DNA of 64,000 nucleotides from a virus. Positions 6,343 through 32,784 of the stretch are shown here, piece after piece (position 1 is the stretch's first letter; each line of letters begins with the position of its first letter). The notes beneath the pieces were generated by a model. The model saw only the letters and a program-made list of their open reading frames with translations, was not told where the DNA came from and did not search any database. Made by a program: the position numbers and the translations under genes. Location of the stretch: IMG/VR virus record IMGVR_UViG_3300034139_000007, positions 16,821 to 80,820 of that record, one strand, 5' to 3'.

Positions 6343-8165
6343 GCGAGGCACTCGTCGTACTGGGGTTGCTGATCAGGGGTGGCCATGGTTGGGACCGGGG
6401 TGGCATCAGACCCGGCGTGGGCGGCGCGCTTCGTCGAGCGGGAGCGCAGGTAGTAGAGCGACTTGGCACCGCGCTCCCATGCGGTGAAGTGCAGCATGTG
6501 CAGGTCCCACTTGTCCACGGTGCCTGGCAGGAAGATGTTCACCGACTGGCCCTGGCAGATGTAGGGCGTCCGGTCGATCATGTGTTCGACGACCCACCGC
6601 TGGTCCAGCTCGAAGCTGGTTCGGAACACCTTCTTCTGATCTTCGTTCAGGTAGTCGAGATGCTGAACCGATCCGTCGGCTTCCAGGATGCTATCCCACT
6701 GCTCCTGGAGCCAGCCCTTGCGATGGGCACCGAAGCCAGTGGGGGCAATCTGGGTCTTCCAGACCGACTTCAGGAGCGCGTCCAAGTACGGGTTCTTGAC
6801 CACGAACGAGCCGGAGAGGGTCTTATGAACGTAGATGTTCGAAGGGATAGGTTCGATACCCGCCGAGGTCCCACCGGCGATGATCGAGATCGACGCCGTC
6901 GGGGCGACGGCCAGTTTATGGCTGAACCGTTCCATCACCTGGTCATCAGCCGCATCCAGGCAGGGGCCGCGCTCGACCGCCAGCTTCTGGCTGGCCGCGT
7001 CAGCTTCGCGCCGTAGCATACGGAACATCCGCATGTTCCACGACTTGGCCATCGGTCCCTCGAAGGCCAGTCCCTGCTTCTGCAAGAACGAGTGGAAGCC
7101 CATCAGGCCCAGGCCGACCGAGCGTTCACGCTTGGCCGAGTAGACCGCTGCAGCCATGGCTGGCGGGGCGCGGGTGATGAAGTCCTCCAGGACGTTGTCC
7201 AGGAACCGCATGATGTCTTCGATGAAGTAGGGGTCGTCCTGCCACTCCAGGAAGGTCTCGGCGTTGACCGACGACAGGCAGCACACGGCTGTCCGGTCCG
7301 TGCCCAGGTGGTCCTTGCCGCTGTGCAGCAGGATCTCGGTGCATAGGTTCGACTGCTGGACCTTCAGGCCAACCTTGCGCTGGAACTCCGGCATGGCCTC
7401 GTTCGCCCGGTCCACGAAGACCAGATAGGGCTCGCCGGTCTGGAGGCGCGTGTCGAGGATCTTCTGCCACAGCGCGCGGGCATCCACGGTCTTCATGACC
7501 ATGCCGCTCTTGGGCGACGTCAGGGCGAAGCTGGTGCCATCACGGACCGCGACCATGAAGGCGTCGGTGATGTTCAGACCATGGTGCAGGTTAGGCGCAC
7601 GTCGGTTGGCATCCCCGGTCGGCTTCCTGATCTCCAGGAACTCTTCGACCTCGGGGTGGTGGATGTCGAGGTAGACGGCGGCAGAGCCCCGTCGCAAGGA
7701 CCCCTGCGCGATGGCCAGGGTCAGACTATCCATGACGCGGATGAAGGGAATGATGCCGGACGTCTGGCCCGCGCGCCCGACTTCCTCACCGATGGAGCGC
7801 ACACCGCCCCAGTAGGTGCCGATGCCGCCGCCGTTGGAGGCCAGCGCGATGTTCTCGTTCCAGATCGACTGGATGCCGTCGAGGCTGTCGCCAACGGCGT
7901 TCAGGAAGCAGGAGATGGGCAGGCCACGGTCGGCACCACCATTGGACAGGACCGGTGTGGCCGGCATGAACCAGAGCTTCGACATGTAGTCGTAGACGCG
8001 CTGGGCATGGGCCTCGTCATCGGAGAACGCAGCGGCGACGCGCGCGAACATGTCCTGATAGGTCTCACTGGGGAGCAGGTAGCGGTCGTCGAGGGTCTTC
8101 TTGCCGAATGCGGTGAGGAAGGCGTCGCGCTCCGGGCACAGGACGACAGCCGAGGGGTCGGTCAT
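6333..8165 (-). CDS. nrdA: ribonucleotide reductase class Ia alpha subunit (no ATP cone)
   Basis: PATPVLSN, LPISCF, QGSLRRG, QSNLCTEI, APTASIS, KSLYYLRS, C-terminal CLAC. Confidence 0.97.
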   Translation of the reverse strand: MTDPSAVVLCPERDAFLTAFGKKTLDDRYLLPSETYQDMFARVAAAFSDDEAHAQRVYDYMSKLWFMPATPVLSNGGADRGLPISCFLNAVGDSLDGIQSIWNENIALASNGGGIGTYWGGVRSIGEEVGRAGQTSGIIPFIRVMDSLTLAIAQGSLRRGSAAVYLDIHHPEVEEFLEIRKPTGDANRRAPNLHHGLNITDAFMVAVRDGTSFALTSPKSGMVMKTVDARALWQKILDTRLQTGEPYLVFVDRANEAMPEFQRKVGLKVQQSNLCTEILLHSGKDHLGTDRTAVCCLSSVNAETFLEWQDDPYFIEDIMRFLDNVLEDFITRAPPAMAAAVYSAKRERSVGLGLMGFHSFLQKQGLAFEGPMAKSWNMRMFRMLRREADAASQKLAVERGPCLDAADDQVMERFSHKLAVAPTASISIIAGGTSAGIEPIPSNIYVHKTLSGSFVVKNPYLDALLKSVWKTQIAPTGFGAHRKGWLQEQWDSILEADGSVQHLDYLNEDQKKVFRTSFELDQRWVVEHMIDRTPYICQGQSVNIFLPGTVDKWDLHMLHFTAWERGAKSLYYLRSRSTKRAAHAGSDATPVPTMATPDQQPQYDECLACQ

Positions 8166-8193
8166 GGGTAATCTCTCCAGGATGGGACGACGA

Positions 8194-8225
8194 CCCTAGC
8201 GGTCGTTGGTCGACGACCGCTAGGG
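8194..8225. other. stem-loop in nrdA leader
   Basis: CCCTAGCGGTCGT-TGGTCG-ACGACCGCTAGGG inverted repeat between motif B copy 3 and the nrdA SD. Confidence 0.6.
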
Positions 8226-8237
8226 GGCAAAAGCGAG

Positions 8238-8250
8238 TATCTACTGGACG
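8238..8250. promoter_or_regulatory. palindromic motif B, copy 3
   Basis: TATCTACTGGACG (1 mismatch) upstream of nrdA. Confidence 0.65.
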
Positions 8251-8257
8251 TTCTGAT

Positions 8258-8794
8258 TTAGCCGACGAAACCCGTCATCATCGCGTGCAGAGTGTCGACC
8301 GATCCGTTGTTCACGATGGTCACGTTGACGTCCAGCGTGTCGATCAGCACTTCGGAGGAATGCTCCTCCCCGGTGCCGACCGGGCGGTCGGGTCGTTCGA
8401 TGCGGATGACCCGCCCACCGGCGTCCTGGATGGCCTGCACCTCGTTGGGGAAGCGGACGTCGGTGATGACCGCCTGCTGGACCTGCTTGGCCTTCTCCAG
8501 AGCGATGTCCACCCAGAAGCTGTCAGCCATCTGCTGGCGGCCCCACTCGGTCCCGAGACGCTGCAGGGCATAGCGCGGCGTCTGGCCAGCCAGGAGCGGC
8601 GTGGGGACCTCCTTCAGGTCCCCTTCCAGCATCCGATCGATCAACTCGTCGTCTGCCCCCTGGTATCGCAGCAGTGTGGCCAGCATCAGCTTCAGCGGGG
8701 TGGCGAAGGCCAGCTGCTCATAGCCGACCAGCGCGTCTGCTGCCGTGTTCTTGCCCGCCCTCTTGCGCCCGGCGACCCCGATAATCTTGGTCAT
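8258..8794 (-). CDS. deoxynucleoside monophosphate kinase
   Basis: IIGVAGRKRAGKNT P-loop, AFATPLK, TPRYALQRLGTEWGR, ITDVRFPNE, HSSE. Confidence 0.92.
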   Translation of the reverse strand: MTKIIGVAGRKRAGKNTAADALVGYEQLAFATPLKLMLATLLRYQGADDELIDRMLEGDLKEVPTPLLAGQTPRYALQRLGTEWGRQQMADSFWVDIALEKAKQVQQAVITDVRFPNEVQAIQDAGGRVIRIERPDRPVGTGEEHSSEVLIDTLDVNVTIVNNGSVDTLHAMMTGFVG

Positions 8795-9597
8795 GCTTCG
8801 ATCTCCTTACGGAACTGGACCCAGCCCCTGAAGTTGGCGTGGAACTCGGTGTCGCCAGACGGTGTGGCCTGGTGCTCGACGGGCGAGAGATGGGGCGGCC
8901 AGGCGACGGCCAGCTTCTGGAACAGGCCCAGGTCGTCCTTGTGTAGGGGCAGCAGCCCGTCGTGGGTGACGTAGCTGGTCCGCGCACAGCGAGCAGCGGA
9001 GATCTGACGTGCCTCTACCCCGGATCGATCCTTGTAGGCGTCCTGGATATACGGCAGGTGCCAGTCGCCCTCGTGCAGCAGTCGGGGGTCCGACGTCTCC
9101 ATGGCCAGCTTGATGGCCACGGCCAGCACCTGGATCGTCGGGTCGGCGTCCGGGTGGTCGCGCAGCAGCATGAAGTTGGCCCACTCGGTGGACGACACCA
9201 CCACGGTGATATGCGACCAGGGCTCGACCATGCGGTTCACGATCTGCTTGTGCCCGCCGAGCGCCGCCATCCAGCCAGCCGCGATACACATGGCGCGCCC
9301 CGACACTCGCCACAGCAGGCGCGCGGCGGTGAGACGCCAGCCTGACAGCTCCTCGCGTGCCTGCATGCCCGGCTGGTTCTTGCCCCAGTGGACGGGCTCG
9401 GCCATGTCGCCGACAATGGAGGCCAGCAGACGCTTGGTCGGGATGGCGCGGCTGGAGCCAGCGTTACGGCTGAAGACCCGGTGGGTCATGAACTCGGAAT
9501 GGATGAAGCGGGGGTAGCGCAGCTCCAGGGTGGTCAGGCGGATCGCGGTGTTGGCCGCGACGCTGTCGGCGATGACCTTGGCGGTGATGGTGGTCAA
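8791..9597 (-). CDS. thyX: FAD-dependent thymidylate synthase (phage ThyX type)
   Basis: YPRFIHSEFMTHRVFSRNAGSSRAIP, HKQIVNR, SAARCARTSY, HLSPVEHQA; TTG start with GAGAGG SD. Confidence 0.88.
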   Translation of the reverse strand: MTTITAKVIADSVAANTAIRLTTLELRYPRFIHSEFMTHRVFSRNAGSSRAIPTKRLLASIVGDMAEPVHWGKNQPGMQAREELSGWRLTAARLLWRVSGRAMCIAAGWMAALGGHKQIVNRMVEPWSHITVVVSSTEWANFMLLRDHPDADPTIQVLAVAIKLAMETSDPRLLHEGDWHLPYIQDAYKDRSGVEARQISAARCARTSYVTHDGLLPLHKDDLGLFQKLAVAWPPHLSPVEHQATPSGDTEFHANFRGWVQFRKEIEA

Positions 9598-9598
9598 G

Positions 9599-9859
9599 TT
9601 AGTCCTCTCGGGGATCGGTAAAGGTGAAATGGCTCCAGCCATCGATGCGCTTGGCCCAGTCCGGCACGATACCGTCGCGGGCGTCCTGGCTCTCGCACCA
9701 CTCCCACCATTCCCGGCGACGCTCGTCAGGGATCAGGTAGTAGTGGCTGCTGTCGTCTACGGCCAGACGGTAGCGGGGAAGGCCAAGATCGACCCTCCCC
9801 CGCACGATGCTCGGCGACAAGGGGACACAACGCCCCACGACCATGGGCTGGTCAGCCAT
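9599..9859 (-). CDS. hypothetical protein
   Basis: in-operon ORF overlapping neighbours; DDSSHYYLIP, Trp-rich. Confidence 0.65.
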   Translation of the reverse strand: MADQPMVVGRCVPLSPSIVRGRVDLGLPRYRLAVDDSSHYYLIPDERRREWWEWCESQDARDGIVPDWAKRIDGWSHFTFTDPRED

Positions 9860-10292
9860 CGATCAGGTTCCACTCATCGTTGGTGCGGCTGTCGACAAGC
9901 GTGTCCTCGACCTTGTAGCGCCACACCTTGAAGCCATGGGCCTGAAGAGCACGGACCAGGTGTTGCACGCGCAGCGACAGGTCGTTCTTGGACTTCGAGT
10001 GGCCGGTCATGAAGGTGTCCTTGGCCGACCGCTCCTCGGTGTCCTCGGCCCGCTTCTTCATCAGCAGCTCGGCCAGCTTGAAGTTGAACCGGCCAGCCAC
10101 CTCGGTGGCCAGTTCGCGGCGTTCATCGAAGACCGGCTCGATGGTGATATGGGCCTCCAGGTACAGAGGCACCTCGTCGAACTGGCCCATCAGGCGGTTG
10201 TCGTTCTGAGCCTTGCGACACCGACCCGTCGCGGGGTCGGTCTCGATCATATCGCCGATGGCGATGGCTTCCATTGCGCGTCCGATCAACAT
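9852..10292 (-). CDS. hypothetical protein
   Basis: in-operon ORF, AGGAGA SD; EAHITIEP...RYKVED motifs. Confidence 0.7.
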   Translation of the reverse strand: MLIGRAMEAIAIGDMIETDPATGRCRKAQNDNRLMGQFDEVPLYLEAHITIEPVFDERRELATEVAGRFNFKLAELLMKKRAEDTEERSAKDTFMTGHSKSKNDLSLRVQHLVRALQAHGFKVWRYKVEDTLVDSRTNDEWNLIDG

Positions 10293-10564
10293 CAGGTTCT
10301 CTCCTTTGCGTGGTCCAGCAGCAGCTTACGAGCTGCCCTGGCTTGGGCGACGATGCCCGATGCGCCCTTGACGCCCTCGAAGAAGGACCGAAGTCCTGCC
10401 TCGTGCGGCTCCATGTAGGCCTTGCCGAGCTTGGTGTAGAAGGTGTCCAGAAAGCTGCCAACGCCATAGCCGGTTAGCGCGTCGATGGCAGCGATCTCAT
10501 CCTCGTTCAGTTCGAGGACGGCAGTAGCCTCGACCTTTGTCGTGTGTCTGACGAAGCGGGCCAT
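10292..10564 (-). CDS. hypothetical protein
   Basis: MARFVRHTT... start coupled to upstream stop (TGATG). Confidence 0.7.
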   Translation of the reverse strand: MARFVRHTTKVEATAVLELNEDEIAAIDALTGYGVGSFLDTFYTKLGKAYMEPHEAGLRSFFEGVKGASGIVAQARAARKLLLDHAKERT

Positions 10565-16758: not shown

Positions 16759-17338
16759 CGGGGTCTTCCTTCTTGGGCTCAACGGCGAACTTCGCCTTCG
16801 CGGTCAGGGCGACCGCAATCTGGTGTAACGTATCATCAAGCGCATGGTGCTCGCGACCGACGAATGGAACCTGCTTATCAAAGGCGGGAGCTGATGGGTC
16901 CATCCGCATCCCCCTGATAAAGCTCTGCATATCGATGCAGTCCCGGAAGAAGAACGGGTTGTCGACACCGGCGTCCTTGAAGCAGCTCTCGATGAACGGC
17001 CACTCGAAGCTGATCGGCTTGGCCCACAGGCGGGGCTGCTCCAGCGCACCCGTCACGCGGCGCACCCACTGCTGGTAGCGATACATGCCCTCGCCCAGGC
17101 TGACAGGGTCCTCGGTGGCCAGCCGGAAGGTCTCCGGGTCCTGCTTGTGCCACCAACCGCGCGTGTCCTCGCACCAGCTGCGCCAGGGTGGCATCTCCAT
17201 GGTGACGTAGAAGGTGTCGGGGCAGACGGTGCCCTCGGCGTAGTTGAACGCCACGCCGGCCAGGGAGAGCATGGCGTTGCGGTCGGGTCGGGTGCCGGTC
17301 GTCTCGATGTCCGACATGATGTCGTAGAATGCAGTCAT
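16751..17338 (-). CDS. 3'-5' exonuclease (DEDDh family)
   Basis: DIETTG, WAKPISFE, RDCID, HHALDD. Confidence 0.85.
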   Translation of the reverse strand: MTAFYDIMSDIETTGTRPDRNAMLSLAGVAFNYAEGTVCPDTFYVTMEMPPWRSWCEDTRGWWHKQDPETFRLATEDPVSLGEGMYRYQQWVRRVTGALEQPRLWAKPISFEWPFIESCFKDAGVDNPFFFRDCIDMQSFIRGMRMDPSAPAFDKQVPFVGREHHALDDTLHQIAVALTAKAKFAVEPKKEDPDA

Positions 17339-17790: not shown

Positions 17791-18079
17791 CTGGCATCCC
17801 CGTCGCAAGAAACGCACCCGGCTTCAGGCTGATGACCTGGGCGGTGGGCTGGGGCACGACACGGACGATGGTCCACGCCTTGTCCCAGTGCATCCCGGCC
17901 TCCTCGGTGGTCTCCAGGAAGGCCTTGGGGTACTTGCCCGGTTCGAGGAACTCGACCCGCATCTCTGCGGGCTCGTTCTTCTCTCCGTCCCAGCGCCACA
18001 GGATGCCGTAGCAGAAGTCCTGGCCCCTCTTCGCAGCGTCGGCCTTGATGCCCTCGATATGGTCAGCGATGGTGGTCAT
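17777..18079 (-). CDS. hypothetical protein
   Basis: in-operon ORF, ATGA overlap with polymerase stop. Confidence 0.7.
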   Translation of the reverse strand: MTTIADHIEGIKADAAKRGQDFCYGILWRWDGEKNEPAEMRVEFLEPGKYPKAFLETTEEAGMHWDKAWTIVRVVPQPTAQVISLKPGAFLATGMPDVEF

Positions 18080-20835
18080 GCGGCCTGCCTCTGGTGCATC
18101 AGGAAGTCGACGACCTGACGGGTCTGGTCGTCATTCAGACGTCCGCCCCAGACGCTCTCGGGCAGGAAGTCCAGCTTGGGTGCTTCGAACAGCTCGATCT
18201 GGCCGATCTGACCAGCCAGAGGGTTGTCAGGGTTCCAGGGTTCGAACGTCAGGCCGACCGCCGGGGTGGCGTCCAGCTTGAGGGTCGGGAAGATGTCGTT
18301 GTGGGACATCATGACCTGGCGGGCCAGGGTGATGAACTCGGCGACCAGGTCCTTGTGGACCGACCAGACCTTCTCATCGTGCACCGGGATCTTGAAGTTA
18401 GCCTCCCGCTTCGTCCAGCCCATCTCCTTGATGATGGCCTTCAGCCGCAGGATCGACCGCTTGATGACGAAGGCGTTCGTGCCCTGCACCATGGCGTTCA
18501 CAGCCTGGTTCTTCGCCCGCTTGTTGATGCGACGGGCGATCTCGTGGACGATGGGGCGCAGCTCGACGACGTCGGGCCACTTGGCCTTGAAGACCTGCAT
18601 CCACTCTTCCGTGGCCTCGTAGCGGAACCGGCGGTGGCCGTCCGGCAGCTCGACATAGCCGTAGATCTCGGCGTGCTGGATGGTGTCCATGCGCCACTGC
18701 TCCGCACCCCAGAAGCGGTTCCGATAGAACTCGGTCGCCTCCCCGGTGCGCTGCAGACCCCAGCCCATGCGCTGCCCGACAGTGGTCAGGAAGCCCGAGT
18801 ACCAGTAGTTGAAGTTCGCGCCCTTGCCGATCTCGGTCCGCCAGTACTTGGCGGCCTTGGCACCGGTCATGCTCTCGCCCTTCAGGTTGGTGAACATCCG
18901 GTCCCGCTCGTAGGGCTTGCAGCCGTACTCCTTCATGAAGTCGTCGGGGTTCTGGTAGTTCTTCAGGGTCTTGAAGATCTCCTCCGTCATCCATGGAAGT
19001 TCGGCCCGGAAGATGTCCGCCGCCGCACCCAGGTGCATATCCTGGTGGGGCAGCTGACCGAAGGCCCGGTGGAACTCCTCGTCCTTGGACAGCTCGCCGA
19101 TGATGACCAGCTCGAAGGCCGACCAATCGAGCGAGACCAGGATGTGGTCGTCATAGTCCGGCAGGAAGAAGCCCCGGACGTAGGTGCTCTCGCCACGCTT
19201 GGCCAGCTGCATCAGGTTCGGGGTGGAGCCAGCCAGACGGCGGGTGTTCAGCAGGCAGTTGACGGTCGGGTACATCCGATCCGTCTCCGGGTCGGTCAGC
19301 ATCGTGTAAGGCGTCAGGTACAGCTTCATGCGCTGCTCGACGCCGGCCATGGCCGTCATGATCTCGATGACCTTGAGCTTGGCCTCGGCGTTGTCGACCT
19401 GGGACTGCTTGATCCAGTCCTGGATCTTGCCTCGGGCCTCGCCGTCCGACTGGATCGCGCCCTTGTCGAACATCATCTTGGCGCGCATCAGGTCGTACAG
19501 CAGGACCCGCACCGGCATGTAGTGGGTGATCGACAGCTCCGGCTTGGCCTTGCCCTTCAGCTCGAAGCCACGGGCCTCCAGGTGCCAGGCGTTGCCGACC
19601 GGCGAGGAGACCTGCATGCACTGCGTCAGGTCGTCGTCGCTGTCGGGCATGTTGGCCCAATCGGACCACTTTTTGCGGTACTTGTGGTAGCCGCAGGCGG
19701 CGTCCGGCTTCTCGGGATTGAAGTACCAGTCCTGCCGCTTGGCCAGCTCGCGCTCCGGGCCATCGGCAGAGGGCAGTAGGGCACGGATGGCGGGCTTCAG
19801 GTCACGCAGCAGCTTGGCGAACTCGATGCGCTCCAGCGCGCGGCGCTCGTCGATGGCGGGCTTGTTGACCCGCATGCCGTCGGTCCAGATCTCCGAGAAG
19901 ACGTGGACCATAGGGTTCTCTTGCTCGAAGAAAGTCCCCAGCGCGTTCGGGCTGTTGCGGGCCAGCTCCTGCATCAGCACATGGAACAGGGGGATCACCC
20001 AGTAGGCGTCCTCCGCACCGTAGTCCGACACCTCGTCGCCGGACAGCATGCCCATGTGGGCGTTACCATCCATGGTCTCCTCGAAGGTCGACATGTCGTA
20101 GCCGAAGAACTTCTTCACCAGCTTCTTCAGGCCGTGGCCGTAGGCCATGTCATAGACGTAGCCGTTGTAGGAGCCGTCGCTGTCGGCGGTCTTGGACGTG
20201 ATCTTGCCGATGATTTCGTCGACCTTGCGGCTGAACCGACGGTCCTGCTCGTCCTCGTCGTCGGGGACCAGGTCCTGGGGCGTCGTCTCCAGCGCGGCCA
20301 TCATCAGCGGGTGGACGTGGCGCTGCAGCTCGCCCAGCGGGGCCTTCCAGAACTCGTTCTTGTCGTAGTTGTCGTCACCGAAGGCCGACACCGACATCTG
20401 CATGGTGCAGACGATGTTGTTCAGAGGGTAGTCGAAGCAGGAGGCGAAAGCCGTCAGCTCGTAGGTGGCGTTGTGAGCGACCCACAGCACGCCCTCGGGC
20501 TTGGCGTCGAGGATCGGCTGGACGTCGGCCCAGGTCAGGCGGTTGGCGACGTCGGAGTGGCCCAGGTTGAAGTACCAGGCTACGTCGTGGCCCTCGGGGT
20601 AGAGCGAGAAGCCGGTCATCACGGTGCGACGCATGTCGAACACCAGCTTCTTGTTCTTAGCCTTGTGGCGGGTCTCCTCGTTGACCTTCATGAAGGCGTT
20701 GAGGCCGTCGTGCCGGGCGTCGTCCTGCGTCTCGCAGTCGATGCCGAGCAGGGTGGTGCAGGCCTGGATGGCGGCCAGCACGCGGGGCAACTCGGTCTGG
20801 AAGTTGCGACGGTCGATCAGGGTGGTGCGGATCAC
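18076..20835 (-). CDS. DNA polymerase family A with 3'-5' exonuclease domain
   Basis: Exo DCET, HNATYE, YGAED; TRRLAGSTPNLMQL; motif A DWSAFEL; motif B RTEIGKGANFNYWY; motif C VHDE. Confidence 0.93.
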   Translation of the reverse strand: MIRTTLIDRRNFQTELPRVLAAIQACTTLLGIDCETQDDARHDGLNAFMKVNEETRHKAKNKKLVFDMRRTVMTGFSLYPEGHDVAWYFNLGHSDVANRLTWADVQPILDAKPEGVLWVAHNATYELTAFASCFDYPLNNIVCTMQMSVSAFGDDNYDKNEFWKAPLGELQRHVHPLMMAALETTPQDLVPDDEDEQDRRFSRKVDEIIGKITSKTADSDGSYNGYVYDMAYGHGLKKLVKKFFGYDMSTFEETMDGNAHMGMLSGDEVSDYGAEDAYWVIPLFHVLMQELARNSPNALGTFFEQENPMVHVFSEIWTDGMRVNKPAIDERRALERIEFAKLLRDLKPAIRALLPSADGPERELAKRQDWYFNPEKPDAACGYHKYRKKWSDWANMPDSDDDLTQCMQVSSPVGNAWHLEARGFELKGKAKPELSITHYMPVRVLLYDLMRAKMMFDKGAIQSDGEARGKIQDWIKQSQVDNAEAKLKVIEIMTAMAGVEQRMKLYLTPYTMLTDPETDRMYPTVNCLLNTRRLAGSTPNLMQLAKRGESTYVRGFFLPDYDDHILVSLDWSAFELVIIGELSKDEEFHRAFGQLPHQDMHLGAAADIFRAELPWMTEEIFKTLKNYQNPDDFMKEYGCKPYERDRMFTNLKGESMTGAKAAKYWRTEIGKGANFNYWYSGFLTTVGQRMGWGLQRTGEATEFYRNRFWGAEQWRMDTIQHAEIYGYVELPDGHRRFRYEATEEWMQVFKAKWPDVVELRPIVHEIARRINKRAKNQAVNAMVQGTNAFVIKRSILRLKAIIKEMGWTKREANFKIPVHDEKVWSVHKDLVAEFITLARQVMMSHNDIFPTLKLDATPAVGLTFEPWNPDNPLAGQIGQIELFEAPKLDFLPESVWGGRLNDDQTRQVVDFLMHQRQAA

Positions 20836-26307: not shown

Positions 26308-26964
26308 TCAATGATAGTGGTAGTTTACATCTGCCGTCGTCCAGCAGGTGTCGCACGAACCGCACTTATTGCCCTGCTGCAAGGCCGGGCAATGGCTGAA
26401 TGCCTCGCTGTCGACACCGACGGTCGAGACCGGCAGGTCGAACGGACGGGACTTGGGCGCGACGCCCAGCTTGGGGCTGGAGGTGCGGACCACCAGGTTG
26501 GACGGGAAGGTGCCGCCCTTGGCCAGGAAGGCGCGGACGACGGGCAGCTCGCGGGTCGGCAACCAGTGTGACAGCTGCGGGGTGCGGACGGCGATCTCGA
26601 CGATCTTCTGCAGCATCTCGACCGACTGCAGGTCACCGGCGTCGAACCAGCGGAAGCGGTTCTCGACGACACCCGGGGAACGCTCGCGCCGCTGGTGGGT
26701 GTACAGGTGGTTCAGGACGGTGACGAAGTTGTCGACGAAGGCGGGGTCATCGACGGCGGCCAGGCGGCGCTGCTGGGCCTCGACCACGTTGGAGAACCGG
26801 TAGTTGCCTTTGAGCGCATAGCAGCCGGAGCAGGTGGTGCCCTCGACCGCGGCCAGCTTGGACCCGGTGATGCAGGTGGTGGCCGATATGGACCAGGACC
26901 ACCAGGGCATTTTCGACGGCTTGCCGAGGCCGCCGATGGCTTTGAGTGCTTCTAGGTATTGCAT
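26308..26964 (-). CDS. GP88-family protein (Cys-rich, radical-SAM-like)
   Basis: SKMP, C...CSGCYA, RFRWFDAGD, HWLPTRE, NLVVRTS, CPA...CGSCDTCW. Confidence 0.8.
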   Translation of the reverse strand: MQYLEALKAIGGLGKPSKMPWWSWSISATTCITGSKLAAVEGTTCSGCYALKGNYRFSNVVEAQQRRLAAVDDPAFVDNFVTVLNHLYTHQRRERSPGVVENRFRWFDAGDLQSVEMLQKIVEIAVRTPQLSHWLPTRELPVVRAFLAKGGTFPSNLVVRTSSPKLGVAPKSRPFDLPVSTVGVDSEAFSHCPALQQGNKCGSCDTCWTTADVNYHYH

Positions 26965-27186: not shown

Positions 27187-28122
27187 TTAGACCCGAGAGA
27201 TGCCGTTGCCGGGATCGACGTGCGGCTTGGGCTCGATGCCCCGACTGTCCGTGATCTTGCCGGTGATGCGGTAGAGGGTCGTCGCATCAGTCGCCAGGGT
27301 CTGGCCCTTGTACTTGCCGTCGTACTCGTCACCGGCCACGAAGGGCTGGAGCACGAGCCGCCCGGTGAAGCGCAGGTCGCCCTCGTCGTCGGCATAGCGC
27401 AGCCGGTCGTGGTCGGGGCCATAGGGGACGATCTCGACGTCGCCCAGCTCTTCGGCATGATCATCCGAGTTCCCCTCCAGGACCTTGCGCTCCGCAACCG
27501 TGTCGCGGTTGATGGCCAGGTCGGCGTCGAACTTGTCCGGGAAGCGACGGAACAGCTTGTCGATGTTCTGCTGGTCGTTCTCGCGGATGGTCTGGCCCAG
27601 GGCGATCAGGGCGTTGGCGCGGTACCAGGCCACGTCGCCCATTTCTTCCTGCATGTTGACCTCGTCGAGGGTCGCGCCGTCGAACAGGACGGGGATCAGG
27701 GCTTCCAGCAGCTCGCCGGCCTCGGTCACGATGCCCAGGATCATGTGCGTCAGCAGCAGGATCTTGGTGTTCGTCACCTCCAGCGGCGGGTGGACGTCGC
27801 CGAACACGGTCGGCTTGCCGTAGGCCAGGGCCTTCTTGAAGCTGTCGAGCGCGACGGTGGCGTCACGGGCTTCTTCGAGGCGGATGCGGAAGTGCTCGGC
27901 GGGCACCAGGTCGGTGCGGTGCTGGTGGCCAGCCGGGCAGGTGCGGCTAGCGAGGGTCTGGTAGTCGAAGTCGGTCATCAGGTTGTCCATCATGTGAGCG
28001 ACGACGCGGAGTTCCAGGTCCGCGAAGTCCAGGTGAAGCAGGCTAGGCTGCGGGTCGGGGCGGTGTGGTCGAAGGCCCTGCCACTCGGGGCTGGATCGGT
28101 AGGCCCTGCCGGTCGGGGTCAT
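27187..28122 (-). CDS. MazG-like NTP pyrophosphohydrolase with N-terminal PolA-motif peptide
   Basis: HMILGIVTEAGELLE, EEMGDVAWY, NIDKLFRRFP; N-terminus TPTGR..SSP..QGL and LDFADLELRVVAH; GGAG SD 7 nt before ATG 28122. Confidence 0.8.
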   Translation of the reverse strand: MTPTGRAYRSSPEWQGLRPHRPDPQPSLLHLDFADLELRVVAHMMDNLMTDFDYQTLASRTCPAGHQHRTDLVPAEHFRIRLEEARDATVALDSFKKALAYGKPTVFGDVHPPLEVTNTKILLLTHMILGIVTEAGELLEALIPVLFDGATLDEVNMQEEMGDVAWYRANALIALGQTIRENDQQNIDKLFRRFPDKFDADLAINRDTVAERKVLEGNSDDHAEELGDVEIVPYGPDHDRLRYADDEGDLRFTGRLVLQPFVAGDEYDGKYKGQTLATDATTLYRITGKITDSRGIEPKPHVDPGNGISRV

Positions 28123-28399
28123 CGGGGAACTCCAGCACGGTGAGAGGGATGCAGTAGTAAGTCTCGTCGAGGAAGCCTCGAAAATCCTTACGGTAGAGCT
28201 TGAGGTCGAAGCGGACCTCGCGGTTCCAGATCACCACGTCGTGGATCTCGGCGGTACGGCCAGCGTGCTTGCCGCTCTTGACCTTGACCTTGGTACCGAT
28301 GATCGCTTTGCCGAACAGCTTGAGCTGGTCGTCGAGTTCCTTTCGGCGAAACTCCAGACTGGCGACTTTGAGGCGGATGAACGTCTCGATCTGGTTCAT
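28043..28399 (-). CDS. hypothetical protein with KOW-like motif
   Basis: IGTKVKVKSGKHAGRTAEI. Confidence 0.6.
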   Translation of the reverse strand: MNQIETFIRLKVASLEFRRKELDDQLKLFGKAIIGTKVKVKSGKHAGRTAEIHDVVIWNREVRFDLKLYRKDFRGFLDETYYCIPLTVLEFPDDPDRQGLPIQPRVAGPSTTPPRPAA

Positions 28400-29408: not shown

Positions 29409-30596
29409 TTAAAGTCCCGCAGCGGTCTCGGCACGCTGCAGTCGATCGATCTGCGGCGGGGCACTGTCGGTCAGGCCCAGCTCCGCTTCGATCTCATCGA
29501 GACGATCCGACAGGGTCTTGTCGTCCCAGTCGCTGTCGTCGATGTTGAGCGTGGCGCGGAGACGCTCGACGCGGTCGGTGAAGCTGACCGGTGCGTCGTC
29601 ACCGACAACCGGACCCAGGTCACCGCTCAGGTCGCGCATGGCCACCAGAGCCTCGACGCGAGAAGCATAGGTGTCCACGACGGTGCCCGCGGGGTTCACA
29701 AGGTCCCATTGATCGCCGTCACGGTCGGCCCAGAGCACACGCCAGCCAGCGTCCCAGGCGGCCAGGGCCGGACCGCAATCCTCACCCTCGGGCAAGGCAA
29801 ACTTGATGCCCTCACGCTGGTACAGGGCCACGCGGTCGTAGCTGAACACCAGCTGGTCCTCGCCCTCGAAGAAGACGCCCTCGCGGGCCTCCTGCATCGA
29901 GATCTCGAACAGCACCTCGTGCTTCTCGGTGCGGCCCTTGGAGCCGCCGCCGTCCTGCGGGAAAGACACGACGTCAGACGGGTCCTCGGCCATGATCAGG
30001 CAGCGATAGTCCGACATGCTCTTCAGGTACTTGTGATTGCAGAAGTGCAGGCCACGCGAGCAGGTGTTGTTGTAGTTGAGGTCGCACTCGTCGCGCGGCA
30101 TCCGAACGATCCGACCCGGTGAGTTGTCCATGGACCTGGTGTGGGCGTCCAGGTACTGCATGTTGACGTACCGATAGGCCAGGAAGCGACCGTCCGGCAG
30201 GATCGGCAGCTCGGCCCGCTCGACCCACTGAAACAGCATGTCGATGGCGTCGCGGGTCGGGTTGCGCATGACGCGGTCCAGGAACAGCGCATACGGCTCC
30301 GGGTCGCGGCCACGGTTCACCATCTGGAGGATGCGGTCGACGAGGTAGTTGTCGACACGTCGGCCCTGGAAGGTGACGCGACCGGCGAAGACGGTCACGT
30401 CGCCATAGTTGCCCAGGGCTTTGGTGAGGCGGTCCGAGGCGTTGACGATGCCGTCGACCTGGTCGTAGTCACCATTGGCGATGGCCGTCTTCAGCTCCTC
30501 GTATCGAGGGTTGTCCGACGGAACCGTGAAGGGCCTGCCGGCCACGAACACGGTCACGCTGTCAGCGGACACGATTGAGATCACAGGGTTAGTCAT
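29409..30596 (-). CDS. rIIB: rIIB-like protein
   Basis: LFQWVE...LPILPDGRFLAYR...DNSPG..VRMPR.ECD...TCSRGLHF; downstream of rIIA-like gene. Confidence 0.85.
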   Translation of the reverse strand: MTNPVISIVSADSVTVFVAGRPFTVPSDNPRYEELKTAIANGDYDQVDGIVNASDRLTKALGNYGDVTVFAGRVTFQGRRVDNYLVDRILQMVNRGRDPEPYALFLDRVMRNPTRDAIDMLFQWVERAELPILPDGRFLAYRYVNMQYLDAHTRSMDNSPGRIVRMPRDECDLNYNNTCSRGLHFCNHKYLKSMSDYRCLIMAEDPSDVVSFPQDGGGSKGRTEKHEVLFEISMQEAREGVFFEGEDQLVFSYDRVALYQREGIKFALPEGEDCGPALAAWDAGWRVLWADRDGDQWDLVNPAGTVVDTYASRVEALVAMRDLSGDLGPVVGDDAPVSFTDRVERLRATLNIDDSDWDDKTLSDRLDEIEAELGLTDSAPPQIDRLQRAETAAGL

Positions 30597-32784
30597 TCAG
30601 CTTGGTCCTTCTGAATGCGGCGAGGGCGGGGACGTCCACGTCGCTGTAGTTGAAGATGTTTGTCTCGGTCCGTTCCCAGATCGCGACGGCGAGGCGTAGT
30701 AGTGGAGATCGATTGTAGACTTTCTCGACCTCCTTGGCCACCGACACCCGCAGCTTCTTGGGTGTCGGCATGTCGAGCCCGGCACGACGGGCATAATCCC
30801 GGGCGTGATCGATCTCACGCTGGAGCGCGCTGGCATCCTCGGGAGCCTTGAGGGCTTCGAGGCGGGCCGTGATCGTCGGGAACAGGTCCGGGTGCCGGGT
30901 GGTCAGGCGGCGCACGGTCTTGGTGAGCTTGTCCTGATCGACCTGGGCCGCGGCGGCCTGACGGGCCAGCTCGGCCAGCACATCCGGGTTACGGATGGTC
31001 AGATCGAACTTGGCCTTGAGCCAGACGTCCAGACGGATGAAGTCCGCCTGATTACCGTCGCGCTTGACCTGGGCCTGGGCCTTCTTGGACAGACCCAGCA
31101 CCAGTTGGCCACCGTCGGTACGCCAGCTAGAGTTGATGACCTTGTTGTCGAAGCCGACCGTGTCGTCGATGTCGTGACCCGTAAGGGGGATGTAGACACC
31201 GGCGGTGGCCAGCTCGTCGGTCTGGTTCCAGTCCGAACGGCACCCGTGGTAGCGGTAGCCGCCATACTGGGTGCCAGGAGACAGGGTCAGGACGCGCAGC
31301 TCGGTCTTCTTGCCGCTGGCCAGCTTGGTCTTGGGCTCTGGCAGGGGCAGCTCCGACAACAACATGATGTTCTGGTCAGAGTAGCGCCAGTCGGCGAAGT
31401 GGGCACGCATGGCCTCGATGGAAGGCCAGTTGGGCACATCGGCACCCTTGTGGTCGAGACGATGGTCGAACAGATAGACCGCCAGCTTTCTGACGCCCAG
31501 ATCCTCGGCCAGTTGGCGAGCACGCGAGGTGACCCGGCGCTTGCTGTCGGACACGTCCTTCATGTCGTCAAAGACGAAGAACCGGTTGTCGCGGAAGGCG
31601 TCGACCGGGAAGGTGTCCTTGACGTAGCGACTGAAGGTGACCTCGGTCTTGTCACTCTTCCAGGACTTGGGCTCGACGTTCAGGACCTGCGGGCGACCGT
31701 AGGGCAGGGCGATCTCGTCGCGGATGCCCGGGAAGCCAGCGTGCTGGACGATGTCGCGCATCACGATGCCGGGCTTGGCGTCGGCCTTGATCTCGGGCCA
31801 CTTCTTGGTGATCATCGACCAGGTGTTGTTGTCCTTCAGCTTCTGGATGAACTCCAGCTGCTCGAAGGGGTTCATGGTCTTGACCAGCTCGAACTGCTGC
31901 TCGGCATAGTCGTCGCAGATCTGACGATACCGCTCGCGCAGCCGGGTCAGGGTCAGGGTGTCATACGACAGACCCTCACGGCTCGGCAGGAGGTCCAGCT
32001 CACCGATGCCGAACACCATGATGATGGTGCCGGGCAGCTTGGCGTCGCCCTCCTGGAGCACGATGCCCCAGTCCAGCGGGTAGGCGACCGGACCCATCAG
32101 GACGTAGGGCTTGGCCGGAGCCTCGGTGCGGACCCAGTAGTTGGACTTCTGATCGGTGTACTCGATCACCGGCACGTCAATGCCGTGGACCTCGTAGCTG
32201 CCCAGCGGCAAGTGCTGCAGCAGGTCAGCGGCAGTGCTCTCGAAGACGCCCCAGTCGTTGGTCTTGATCGGGACCTGGACCTGGATGCCGTCCGGCTCGT
32301 CGGTGGGCTGCTCATCGATGCGCGACATCTGAGGGATGCCGTCGCCGCCACGGTAGGCGGCGTAGCTGCGCTTGATGCCGGCCTGCACGGACGCCACGGT
32401 GAAGGCGTCGGCGTAGGCGAAGGGCGACTTGCAGCCCAGACCGAAGCCGCCGATGGCGTCGTCGCCCTGATCCTTGGTCGATGCACCGAACGAGGTGTAC
32501 ATCAGCATCACGTCGTCGTCGCTCATGCCGGGGCCGTAGTCGCGGATCGTCAGCATCGGCTCGATGTGGTTGGGCAGGCTGATCAGGATCGGACGGGTCT
32601 GGCCGTTCATGCCGTGGGCGTCCAGTGCGTTGCACGAGATCTCACGGATGACGGCCCGGGGTTTGTCCGAGTAGAGCTTATCGGCCAGGATGCTGAACAT
32701 CTTGGCGTTGCCCTGGATGGTGAAGGCGGCAGTCGGCAGCTCGTCGCTGACCGAGACGTCTCTCTTGAAGGCATCGGAACGCAT
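30589..32784 (-). CDS. rIIA: rIIA-like protein (GHKL ATPase N-terminus)
   Basis: LYSDKPRAVIREISCNALDAH, IRDYGPGM, FGASTK, IGGFGLGCKSPFAY. Confidence 0.88.
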   Translation of the reverse strand: MRSDAFKRDVSVSDELPTAAFTIQGNAKMFSILADKLYSDKPRAVIREISCNALDAHGMNGQTRPILISLPNHIEPMLTIRDYGPGMSDDDVMLMYTSFGASTKDQGDDAIGGFGLGCKSPFAYADAFTVASVQAGIKRSYAAYRGGDGIPQMSRIDEQPTDEPDGIQVQVPIKTNDWGVFESTAADLLQHLPLGSYEVHGIDVPVIEYTDQKSNYWVRTEAPAKPYVLMGPVAYPLDWGIVLQEGDAKLPGTIIMVFGIGELDLLPSREGLSYDTLTLTRLRERYRQICDDYAEQQFELVKTMNPFEQLEFIQKLKDNNTWSMITKKWPEIKADAKPGIVMRDIVQHAGFPGIRDEIALPYGRPQVLNVEPKSWKSDKTEVTFSRYVKDTFPVDAFRDNRFFVFDDMKDVSDSKRRVTSRARQLAEDLGVRKLAVYLFDHRLDHKGADVPNWPSIEAMRAHFADWRYSDQNIMLLSELPLPEPKTKLASGKKTELRVLTLSPGTQYGGYRYHGCRSDWNQTDELATAGVYIPLTGHDIDDTVGFDNKVINSSWRTDGGQLVLGLSKKAQAQVKRDGNQADFIRLDVWLKAKFDLTIRNPDVLAELARQAAAAQVDQDKLTKTVRRLTTRHPDLFPTITARLEALKAPEDASALQREIDHARDYARRAGLDMPTPKKLRVSVAKEVEKVYNRSPLLRLAVAIWERTETNIFNYSDVDVPALAAFRRTKLND

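Follow-up and report, generated by a model that had tools for sequence, protein, structure and literature searches.

The window analysed here is a stretch of 64,000 nucleotides (nt), positions 16,821 to 80,820 of the IMG/VR virus record IMGVR_UViG_3300034139_000007, which makes up most of this 80.8-kb record and whose early and replication region matches that of the Caulobacter siphophage Seuss. On its minus strand, at 27187..28122, lies an open reading frame (ORF) of 311 amino acids (aa), whose architecture was established from the ORF list, the match to phrog_229 and the alignment with the Seuss protein gp080. It comprises an N-terminal leader (aa 1-45, 27988..28122), a core like that of the MazG nucleoside triphosphate (NTP) pyrophosphohydrolases and a beta-rich C-terminal domain. 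The leader is a compact copy of the segment of family A DNA polymerases (PolA) that runs from motif 2 to motif A, and is called here the mini-Pol I module after DNA polymerase I (Pol I). This assignment is based on the comparison of a leader profile with the Protein Data Bank (PDB), on a profile of the module itself and on a proportion of non-synonymous differences (pN) like that of the MazG core.

The leader profile was built from four sequences, namely the leaders of the window protein, of Seuss, of P0003 and of L003, and was compared with all PDB sequences. All 64 of the 64 matches were family A polymerases, the best being Taq polymerase (E 3.4e-8), and profile positions 2-45 were aligned to Taq 569-623, collinearly from TGRLSSSDPNLQ to LDYSQIELRVLAHLS, with deletions of 8 and 3 residues. 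The first arm (aa 2-15, 28078..28119, minus strand, TPTGR...PEWQ) is equivalent to TGRLSSxxPNLQ of PolA in the HMMER alignment to Taq 569-582, and in it T-G-R is followed five residues on by P-E-x-Q (TPTGRAYRSSPEWQ). The second arm (aa 28-43, 27994..28041, minus strand, LLHLDFADLELRVVAH) is equivalent to the strand and helix of PolA motif A, with the catalytic Asp and the steric-gate Glu, in the alignment to Taq 605-621; motif A itself is present as LDFADLELRVVAH, aligned to Taq 608-621, and the pattern D[FY]xx[LIV]ExR[VI] with its invariant Asp and Glu reads DFADLELRV. The whole leader is collinear with the palm segment between TGRLSSxxPNLQNIP and DYSQIELRxLAH (about positions 113-175 of Pfam PF00476) and shares with it T-G-R, P, Q, the catalytic Asp, the steric-gate Glu and the Arg that follows.

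Other comparisons pointed the same way. The Seuss leader was matched by Pfam DNA_pol_A (PF00476; E 6e-5, positions 115-170 of 381), which in the window leader covers about positions 149-171 of 381. Pairwise BLASTP aligned the window leader with Brucella Pol I (E 3e-6), and a 21-sequence module profile run against 5.8 billion proteins matched bacterial Pol I at E about 1e-8. Judged by these scores, the resemblance of the leader to PolA is far beyond chance. The initial annotation, made from the letters of the window, had described PolA motifs in the right order but condensed in the N-terminal ~45 residues. Both points were borne out, the profile match to PolA being significant and the stretch between the Arg of TGR and the Asp of motif A measuring 25 aa in the window leader vs 36 aa in Pol I-type enzymes.

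The phage encodes its own full-length family A polymerase of 919 aa (18076..20835, minus strand; phrog_17, E 1.7e-65), with the motifs TRRLAGSTPNLMQL and DWSAFELVIIGE. The latter is its motif A, which is less canonical than that of the leader, as had been noted before. No pairwise alignment at the homologous site was obtained between the window leader and this polymerase. When the module profile was compared with the whole phage genome, the leader was the sole match (E 7e-23), and the 919-aa PolA remained unmatched at E<=10. Since the leader aligns with Brucella Pol I and the module profile misses the phage's own enzyme, the leader, as the alignments have it, copies a segment of Pol I of the cellular type in shortened form and is not a duplicate of the phage's own PolA.

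Apart from its length of ~45 residues and the two deletions, the leader is unlike family A polymerases in having PE-x-Q-[DE] for PNLQN and in lacking the thumb, the fingers and motifs B and C. Motif B with the O-helix (RxxxKxxxFGxxYG) is absent, the leader stopping at residue 45 with the MazG core next, and no motif or match for motif C (HDE, with the second catalytic Asp) was found across the 311-aa protein. With both of these motifs missing, as well as fingers and thumb, the leader cannot polymerise.

The leader belongs to a family of small proteins. Compared with 1.84 billion representative proteins, the leader profile gave 27 matches at E <= 1e-3, most of them proteins of 59-117 aa with little beyond the compact module. 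The common plan is [ST]PTGR with PE-x-Q five residues on, then a spacer rich in Pro and charged residues, and then [LIV]D[FY]xx[LIV]ExR[VI]LA. In a 19-sequence alignment T4, G5, R6, D32 and E37 are invariant, and P12 and R39 nearly so. The spacer from Arg to Asp measures 22-34 aa in most module proteins vs 32-38 aa in true PolAs, and both primer-contacting Asn residues of PNLQN are consistently replaced, one by Glu and the other by Asp/Glu. The true PolA fragments in the same match lists keep PNLQNIP and the long spacer and are called by Pfam PF00476.

The search for the leader peptide in other proteins returned both stand-alone and embedded forms. Stand-alone members span 59-140 aa and come from the Roseobacter RDJL phages and from metagenomes. 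In RDJL Phi1 (gp54), RDJL Phi2 (gp47) and RDJL6 they are 'hypothetical proteins' of 122-134 aa, encoded downstream of the primase among a series of small genes. These proteins, together with the metagenomic P0028-P0069, share with the window protein the module, its invariant residues and often the MTPTGR N-terminus; they differ from it in their variable tails, in the hypothetical-protein annotation and in having no MazG fusion. The RDJL orthologues show a pN/pS of 0.3-0.5 (pS, proportion of synonymous differences), which indicates that they are under purifying selection. The module is embedded in other small proteins in the 217-aa gp115 of Dinoroseobacter phage R26L (P0079, L198:4833-5486), where it occupies about residues 57-114, and in P0035, P0044 and P0070. 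No second recognisable domain was found in the stand-alone or embedded module proteins of cultured phages and metagenomes, and MazG is the sole known enzyme fused to the module. The cultured carriers all infect Alphaproteobacteria. In each mini-bearing genome checked the module is single-copy, and five out of five such genomes also encode a complete PolA, these PolAs falling in three different clades.

The family varies in the arrangement of its parts. In three metagenomic members (P0060, P0076 and P0078) the arms stand in swapped order, with the motif A arm before MTPTGR...PE-x-Q; P0060 and P0078 are 62-65 aa long and P0076 206 aa, and behind the swap lies either a circular permutation or else a tandem copy that was mis-called. 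Some longer members bear extra condensed PolA motifs, such as FGVPxE and YAxGPRKLS. An FGVPxE-like motif follows motif A in the RDJL proteins, and RWPxAYAxGPRKLS, which is like YGMSAxRLS of Pol I, is found after motif A in P0070 and before TGR in P0034 and P0045, while P0079 has only the weaker YGGVPQK in its place. The isoelectric points (pI) of family members are mixed, from 4.7 to 11.6, and the idea of a basic DNA-binding peptide was dropped as unsupported.

Scans of IMG/VR for stand-alone minis returned true PolAs only, or nothing; one designed DNA pattern recovered RDJL Phi2. The matches of P0066 in cyanophages S-CBP1 and S-CBP4 were rejected as minis, as they lie inside unannotated real DNA polymerase genes. 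In Synechococcus phage S-CBP4 about 3.7 kb (L197:720-4399; NC_025464.1, about 6872-10551) is without an annotated feature and gives a family A polymerase-like match, and locus tags 0014 and 0015 are missing from its RefSeq record.

A further small stand-alone Pol I palm fragment is the 81-aa 'DNA polymerase' of the Caulobacter phage phiCbK (YP_006988117.1; PHROG 12116), which hhalign aligned with the module profile at 95% probability (E 3e-8). Unlike the module, it has the full-length Pol I spacer, PxIQNIP and a motif C-like RVHDEF. The PHROG 12116 profile found no match in the phage genome at E<=10, the leader included, and the window protein is without HDE. From these profile comparisons, the phiCbK-type protein is regarded as a subfamily separate from the compact module. 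Its gene (L208:34178-34423, minus strand) directly adjoins the gene of a GcrA-like cell-cycle regulator; the small 81-aa gene is not discussed in the phiCbK genome paper. No description of such fusions or polymerase fragments was found in the literature, and new from the window are a compact subtype of such fragments and the joining of this subtype to MazG.

Within the MazG lineage the leader is kept in frame in Seuss and in metagenomic relatives. Seuss gp080 (YP_009785590.1), 36% identical overall and alignable from residue 4 of the window protein, likewise consists of leader, MazG core and C-terminal beta domain and likewise lies downstream of rIIA/rIIB. It differs in a leader spacer that is 4 residues longer, in a leader closer still to the Pol I consensus (TGRLSRHQPEIQ ... 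MDFSEIELKVIAHL) and in an unrelated upstream gene; its record annotates gp080 as MazG alone. The full leader is also present in P0003, and the motif A half is retained in L003/L004, P0004, P0005, P0007 and P0042. Against L003 the pN is 0.24 for the leader and 0.25 for the MazG core, and against Seuss 0.42 and 0.39, with pS saturated in these comparisons (0.6-0.8). In the second arm, 7 synonymous changes in 12 conserved codons separate the window from L003. The leaderless phrog_229 pyrophosphatases of Lokivirus, PaMx/YuA-type and Xanthomonas phages have the same catalytic core (33-47% identical) but begin where the window protein has about residue 39-52, with no PolA-like leader. Scans of IMG/VR and JGI metagenomes with the MazG alignment gave 160 loci, among which the leader was found only in Seuss and L003/L004.

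Several features support translation of the leader. A Shine-Dalgarno (SD) sequence GGAG, already pointed out in the initial annotation, is read at 28130..28133 on the minus strand, 7 nt 5' of the ATG at 28122-28120. The alternative starts are poorer, M44 and M45 having no purine-rich site upstream and M49 having GGA only. In the curated Seuss record the gene start includes the leader and is preceded by an annotated ribosome-binding site, and in L003 GGAGG stands 7 nt before a GTG start that overlaps the stop codon of the upstream gene. MTPTGR is the exact N-terminus also of P0003 and of at least seven stand-alone proteins (P0031, P0039, P0054, P0057, P0061, P0066 and P0069). The G + C content at third codon positions (GC3) is 0.81 in the leader frame vs 0.73 in the overlapping tail of the upstream ORF. 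From this evidence we infer that the leader is very probably translated from ATG 28122.

The core to which the leader is joined (aa 50-220, 27463..27975, minus strand) is a predicted all-alpha domain with an intact ExxE...ExxD metal site. The MazG-like assignment comes from phrog_229 (E 8e-43); Pfam MazG PF03819 matched with E 2.9e-4 and 21.5 bits, slightly below the 22-bit cutoff. The metal site, of the pattern ExxE(12-28)ExxD, is formed by E134-x-x-E137 and E160-x-x-D163, 22 residues apart, and is invariant in an alignment of 26 sequences. As to the four-helix-bundle fold of the MazG family, in the AlphaFold2 (AF2) model the core is helical with a predicted local distance difference test score (pLDDT) of 80-98, and the top Foldseek rows were E. 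coli MazG, iMazG and DCTPP1, all weak (E 0.03-0.3). The MazG part, as judged from the alignment, keeps an intact predicted catalytic site.

The C-terminal beta-rich domain (aa 224-292, 27247..27453, minus strand), delimited by alignment and by the AF2 strands at 224-292, is confined to the Seuss-like group. Its conserved pattern is GPDHDRLR ... PFxAGDEYxGKYKGQ ... LYRI, and an extra related block stands before it in P0003, P0004 and P0009. No Pfam family was found for this domain, with a faint DUF6957 match in P0003 only.

The gene immediately 5' of mazG is an ORF of 118 aa with a weak KOW motif (28043..28399, minus strand), the last 26 codons of which overlap the leader by 80 nt. This gene is unrelated among the window (118 aa), Seuss (231 aa) and L003 (125 aa), which places a mosaic junction at or inside the leader; the leader remains linked to mazG in all three. 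The breakpoint in L003 lies in the spacer, immediately before DYELIGLDF. Further upstream are rIIB (29409-30596) and rIIA (30589-32784). Two genes downstream of MazG lies a gene (26308-26964, minus strand) whose 218-aa product contains Cys clusters and matches Pfam GP88 (E 2.4e-26); in L003, too, MazG is followed by this gene. The other replication genes of the window comprise a primase, a helicase, SbcCD, a ligase, a flap endonuclease (FEN), a deoxynucleoside monophosphate (dNMP) kinase and a ribonucleotide reductase. At the DNA level the region matched none of 50,697 phage records. The idea of a Z-genome (PurZ/MazZ) was dropped, as a Pfam scan found none of ten replication-module ORFs to be PurZ-like; those ten were assigned to SbcD, an exonuclease, a FEN, a ligase, a dNMP kinase and GP88.

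In the AF2 model of the full-length protein, residues 1-27 have a pLDDT <50, the only element of the leader is a helix at 33-48 of moderate confidence, and the leader is not confidently packed on the MazG core. A stand-alone member was predicted with the TGR half as coil, motif A as a helix and the tail as a helix (predicted template modelling score 0.40), with no autonomous fold. In view of the arm swaps, the variable tails and the few conserved residues, a flexible peptide that folds on a partner fits better than a mini-enzyme, and the change of the Asn residues to Glu and Asp/Glu, together with the mixed pI, argues against simple Pol I-like DNA binding. The module is therefore probably a non-catalytic peptide ligand or mimic of a putative partner, on which the leader, a predicted flexible arm with one amphipathic helix, would fold.

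The module probably descends from a cellular-type Pol I, of whose palm it keeps the stretch that reaches from the primer-contact loop (TGRLSS/PNLQ) through the strand and helix of motif A; in the family this stretch is shorter by ~11 residues, and PE-x-Q-[DE] has taken the place of PNLQN. The simplest and most likely history would be that, in the Seuss-like lineage, a short mini-Pol I gene preceding mazG was deprived of its stop codon and so became fused in frame. Erosion of the first arm would then have followed in some lineages: in L003 recombination put other sequence in its place, and in P0042 and P0010 it has degenerated.

Taken as a whole, the best explanation is that of a maintained and translated compact mini-Pol I leader that is fused to mazG and would act as a peptide ligand or mimic, for which we estimate a probability of roughly 0.5. 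In this explanation the leader, which is conserved, would be a selectively maintained N-terminal extension, and it may be functionally coupled to MazG. Several observations weigh against the explanation. The metagenome gene caller began the gene at M49 (P0001, 263 aa), so that the leader is missing from the public protein call. The 80-nt overlap of the leader with the upstream ORF is long. The TGR half was lost or became degenerate several times in the MazG lineage (L003, P0042, P0010), so that this first half is dispensable in some phages in the fused state. No leader is present in the more distant MazG homologues, namely those of Lokivirus, of PaMx-type phages and of the remaining loci examined in IMG/VR and in metagenomes. 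Finally, a separate mini gene directly 5' of mazG was not observed, the DNA of most close relatives not being covered.

The initial annotation had interpreted the protein as a polymerase-mimic peptide, either a decoy for a defence sensor or a docking tag to the replisome, fused to a nucleotide-pool enzyme, or else as a relic of a displaced polA gene. A polymerase-derived, non-catalytic peptide joined in frame to a predicted nucleotide-pool enzyme is consistent with the homology, the conservation and the very probable translation described above, and this part of the proposal stands. Its origin as a relic of a displaced polA of this phage is not supported, since the compact family occurs as stand-alone proteins under purifying selection in unrelated phages and the leader is like cellular Pol I rather than the phage's own PolA.

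Other readings of the same module were weighed against that of a maintained ligand or mimic fused to MazG. The module might be a mimic or poison of host Pol I, which interferes with the host enzyme or replaces it in a complex, for instance in repair synthesis on phage DNA, with the MazG fusion being incidental. It is nearest to cellular Pol I, alphaproteobacterial enzymes included, and not to phage PolAs, and the hosts of the cultured carriers are all alphaproteobacterial. Every mini-bearing genome checked has its own PolA, and the window phage, which also encodes a FEN and a ligase, could for this reason dispense with host Pol I. The copied segment is buried within the folded polymerase, however, and we know of no phage inhibitor that acts in this way; this reading is considered unlikely.

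Rated somewhat lower is a docking function, by which the leader would take MazG to primer termini or to the replisome and so clean the pool of deoxynucleoside triphosphates (dNTPs) at the site of synthesis. In the Klenow fragment the R of TGR and the Q of PNLQ contact the primer terminus. Both residues are kept in the module, and the leader is fused to a predicted dNTP-pool enzyme. Against this, the acidic residues that consistently replace the Asn pair of PNLQN should repel DNA phosphate, the pI of the family covers a wide range, most carriers have the module without MazG, and the leader is unpacked on MazG in the AF2 model. Such a docking tag is rather improbable.

Lower again stands the proposal of a decoy, directed at a toxin or defence sensor of the host by which conserved motifs of family A polymerases would be recognised. 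Of the PolA motifs the module retains just the most conserved, in a flexible and sometimes order-swapped form as would suit the display of linear epitopes, and all checked carriers encode a PolA. The module is, however, like the host-type Pol I consensus and unlike the divergent PolAs of its own phages, so that a sensor binding the module would see the host enzyme too; for the same reason a mimic or competitor of host Pol I fits somewhat better than a decoy. The literature search gave no defence system with a polymerase-motif trigger, and none triggered by family A polymerase motifs is known to us. A decoy is accordingly thought quite improbable.

There is still less to be said for the view that a polA fragment was once captured and is now decaying slowly, without function, as a remnant that happens to supply the start codon. 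Decay would agree with the low AF2 confidence of the leader, with its absence from distant MazG homologues and with the state of the first half in L003, P0042 and P0010, where it is lost or degenerate. Yet the full leader is kept in the two most divergent members (36% identical), it has the same pN as the enzyme core at saturated pS, and about 20 stand-alone proteins, whose orthologues appear to be under purifying selection, share its invariant residues, so that a remnant is very doubtful. Least probable by our estimate is that the leader is untranslated, with the true start at M44, M45 or M49 and the similarity lying in a 5' untranslated or overlapped region, for although the gene caller picked M49 and the overlap with the upstream ORF is long, no good SD precedes any of these codons, it is the protein sequence that is conserved, amid many synonymous changes, the leader accompanies mazG in three phages whose upstream genes differ, and GC3 is higher in the leader frame than in the overlapping one.

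On the strength of the profile matches and alignments, the feature is thus real, conserved and homologous to Pol I, and it is a new fused form of a little-known family of polymerase-fragment proteins. Annotation misses or mislabels such leaders, either by a truncated start or by calling an 81-aa protein a 'DNA polymerase'. A conserved module that retains, from the active site of an essential host enzyme, just the least variable residues, stripped of all their catalytic context, is an unusual object. Since it recurs in cultured, genetically tractable systems, namely the Caulobacter phages Seuss and phiCbK, the Roseobacter RDJL phages and the Dinoroseobacter phage R26L, the role of the polymerase fragment is directly testable. 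A functional fusion to MazG would tie the module to replication or to the metabolism of dNTPs; an incidental one would exemplify the absorption of small phage genes by their neighbours. As a tentative and still doubtful proposal, alphaproteobacterial phages may carry a family of miniature, non-catalytic mimics of the strand and helix of the host Pol I active site, which would poison or hijack that enzyme or disarm a host factor able to read polymerase motifs, and in Seuss-like phages the coupling to MazG would link dNTP sanitation to the same target.

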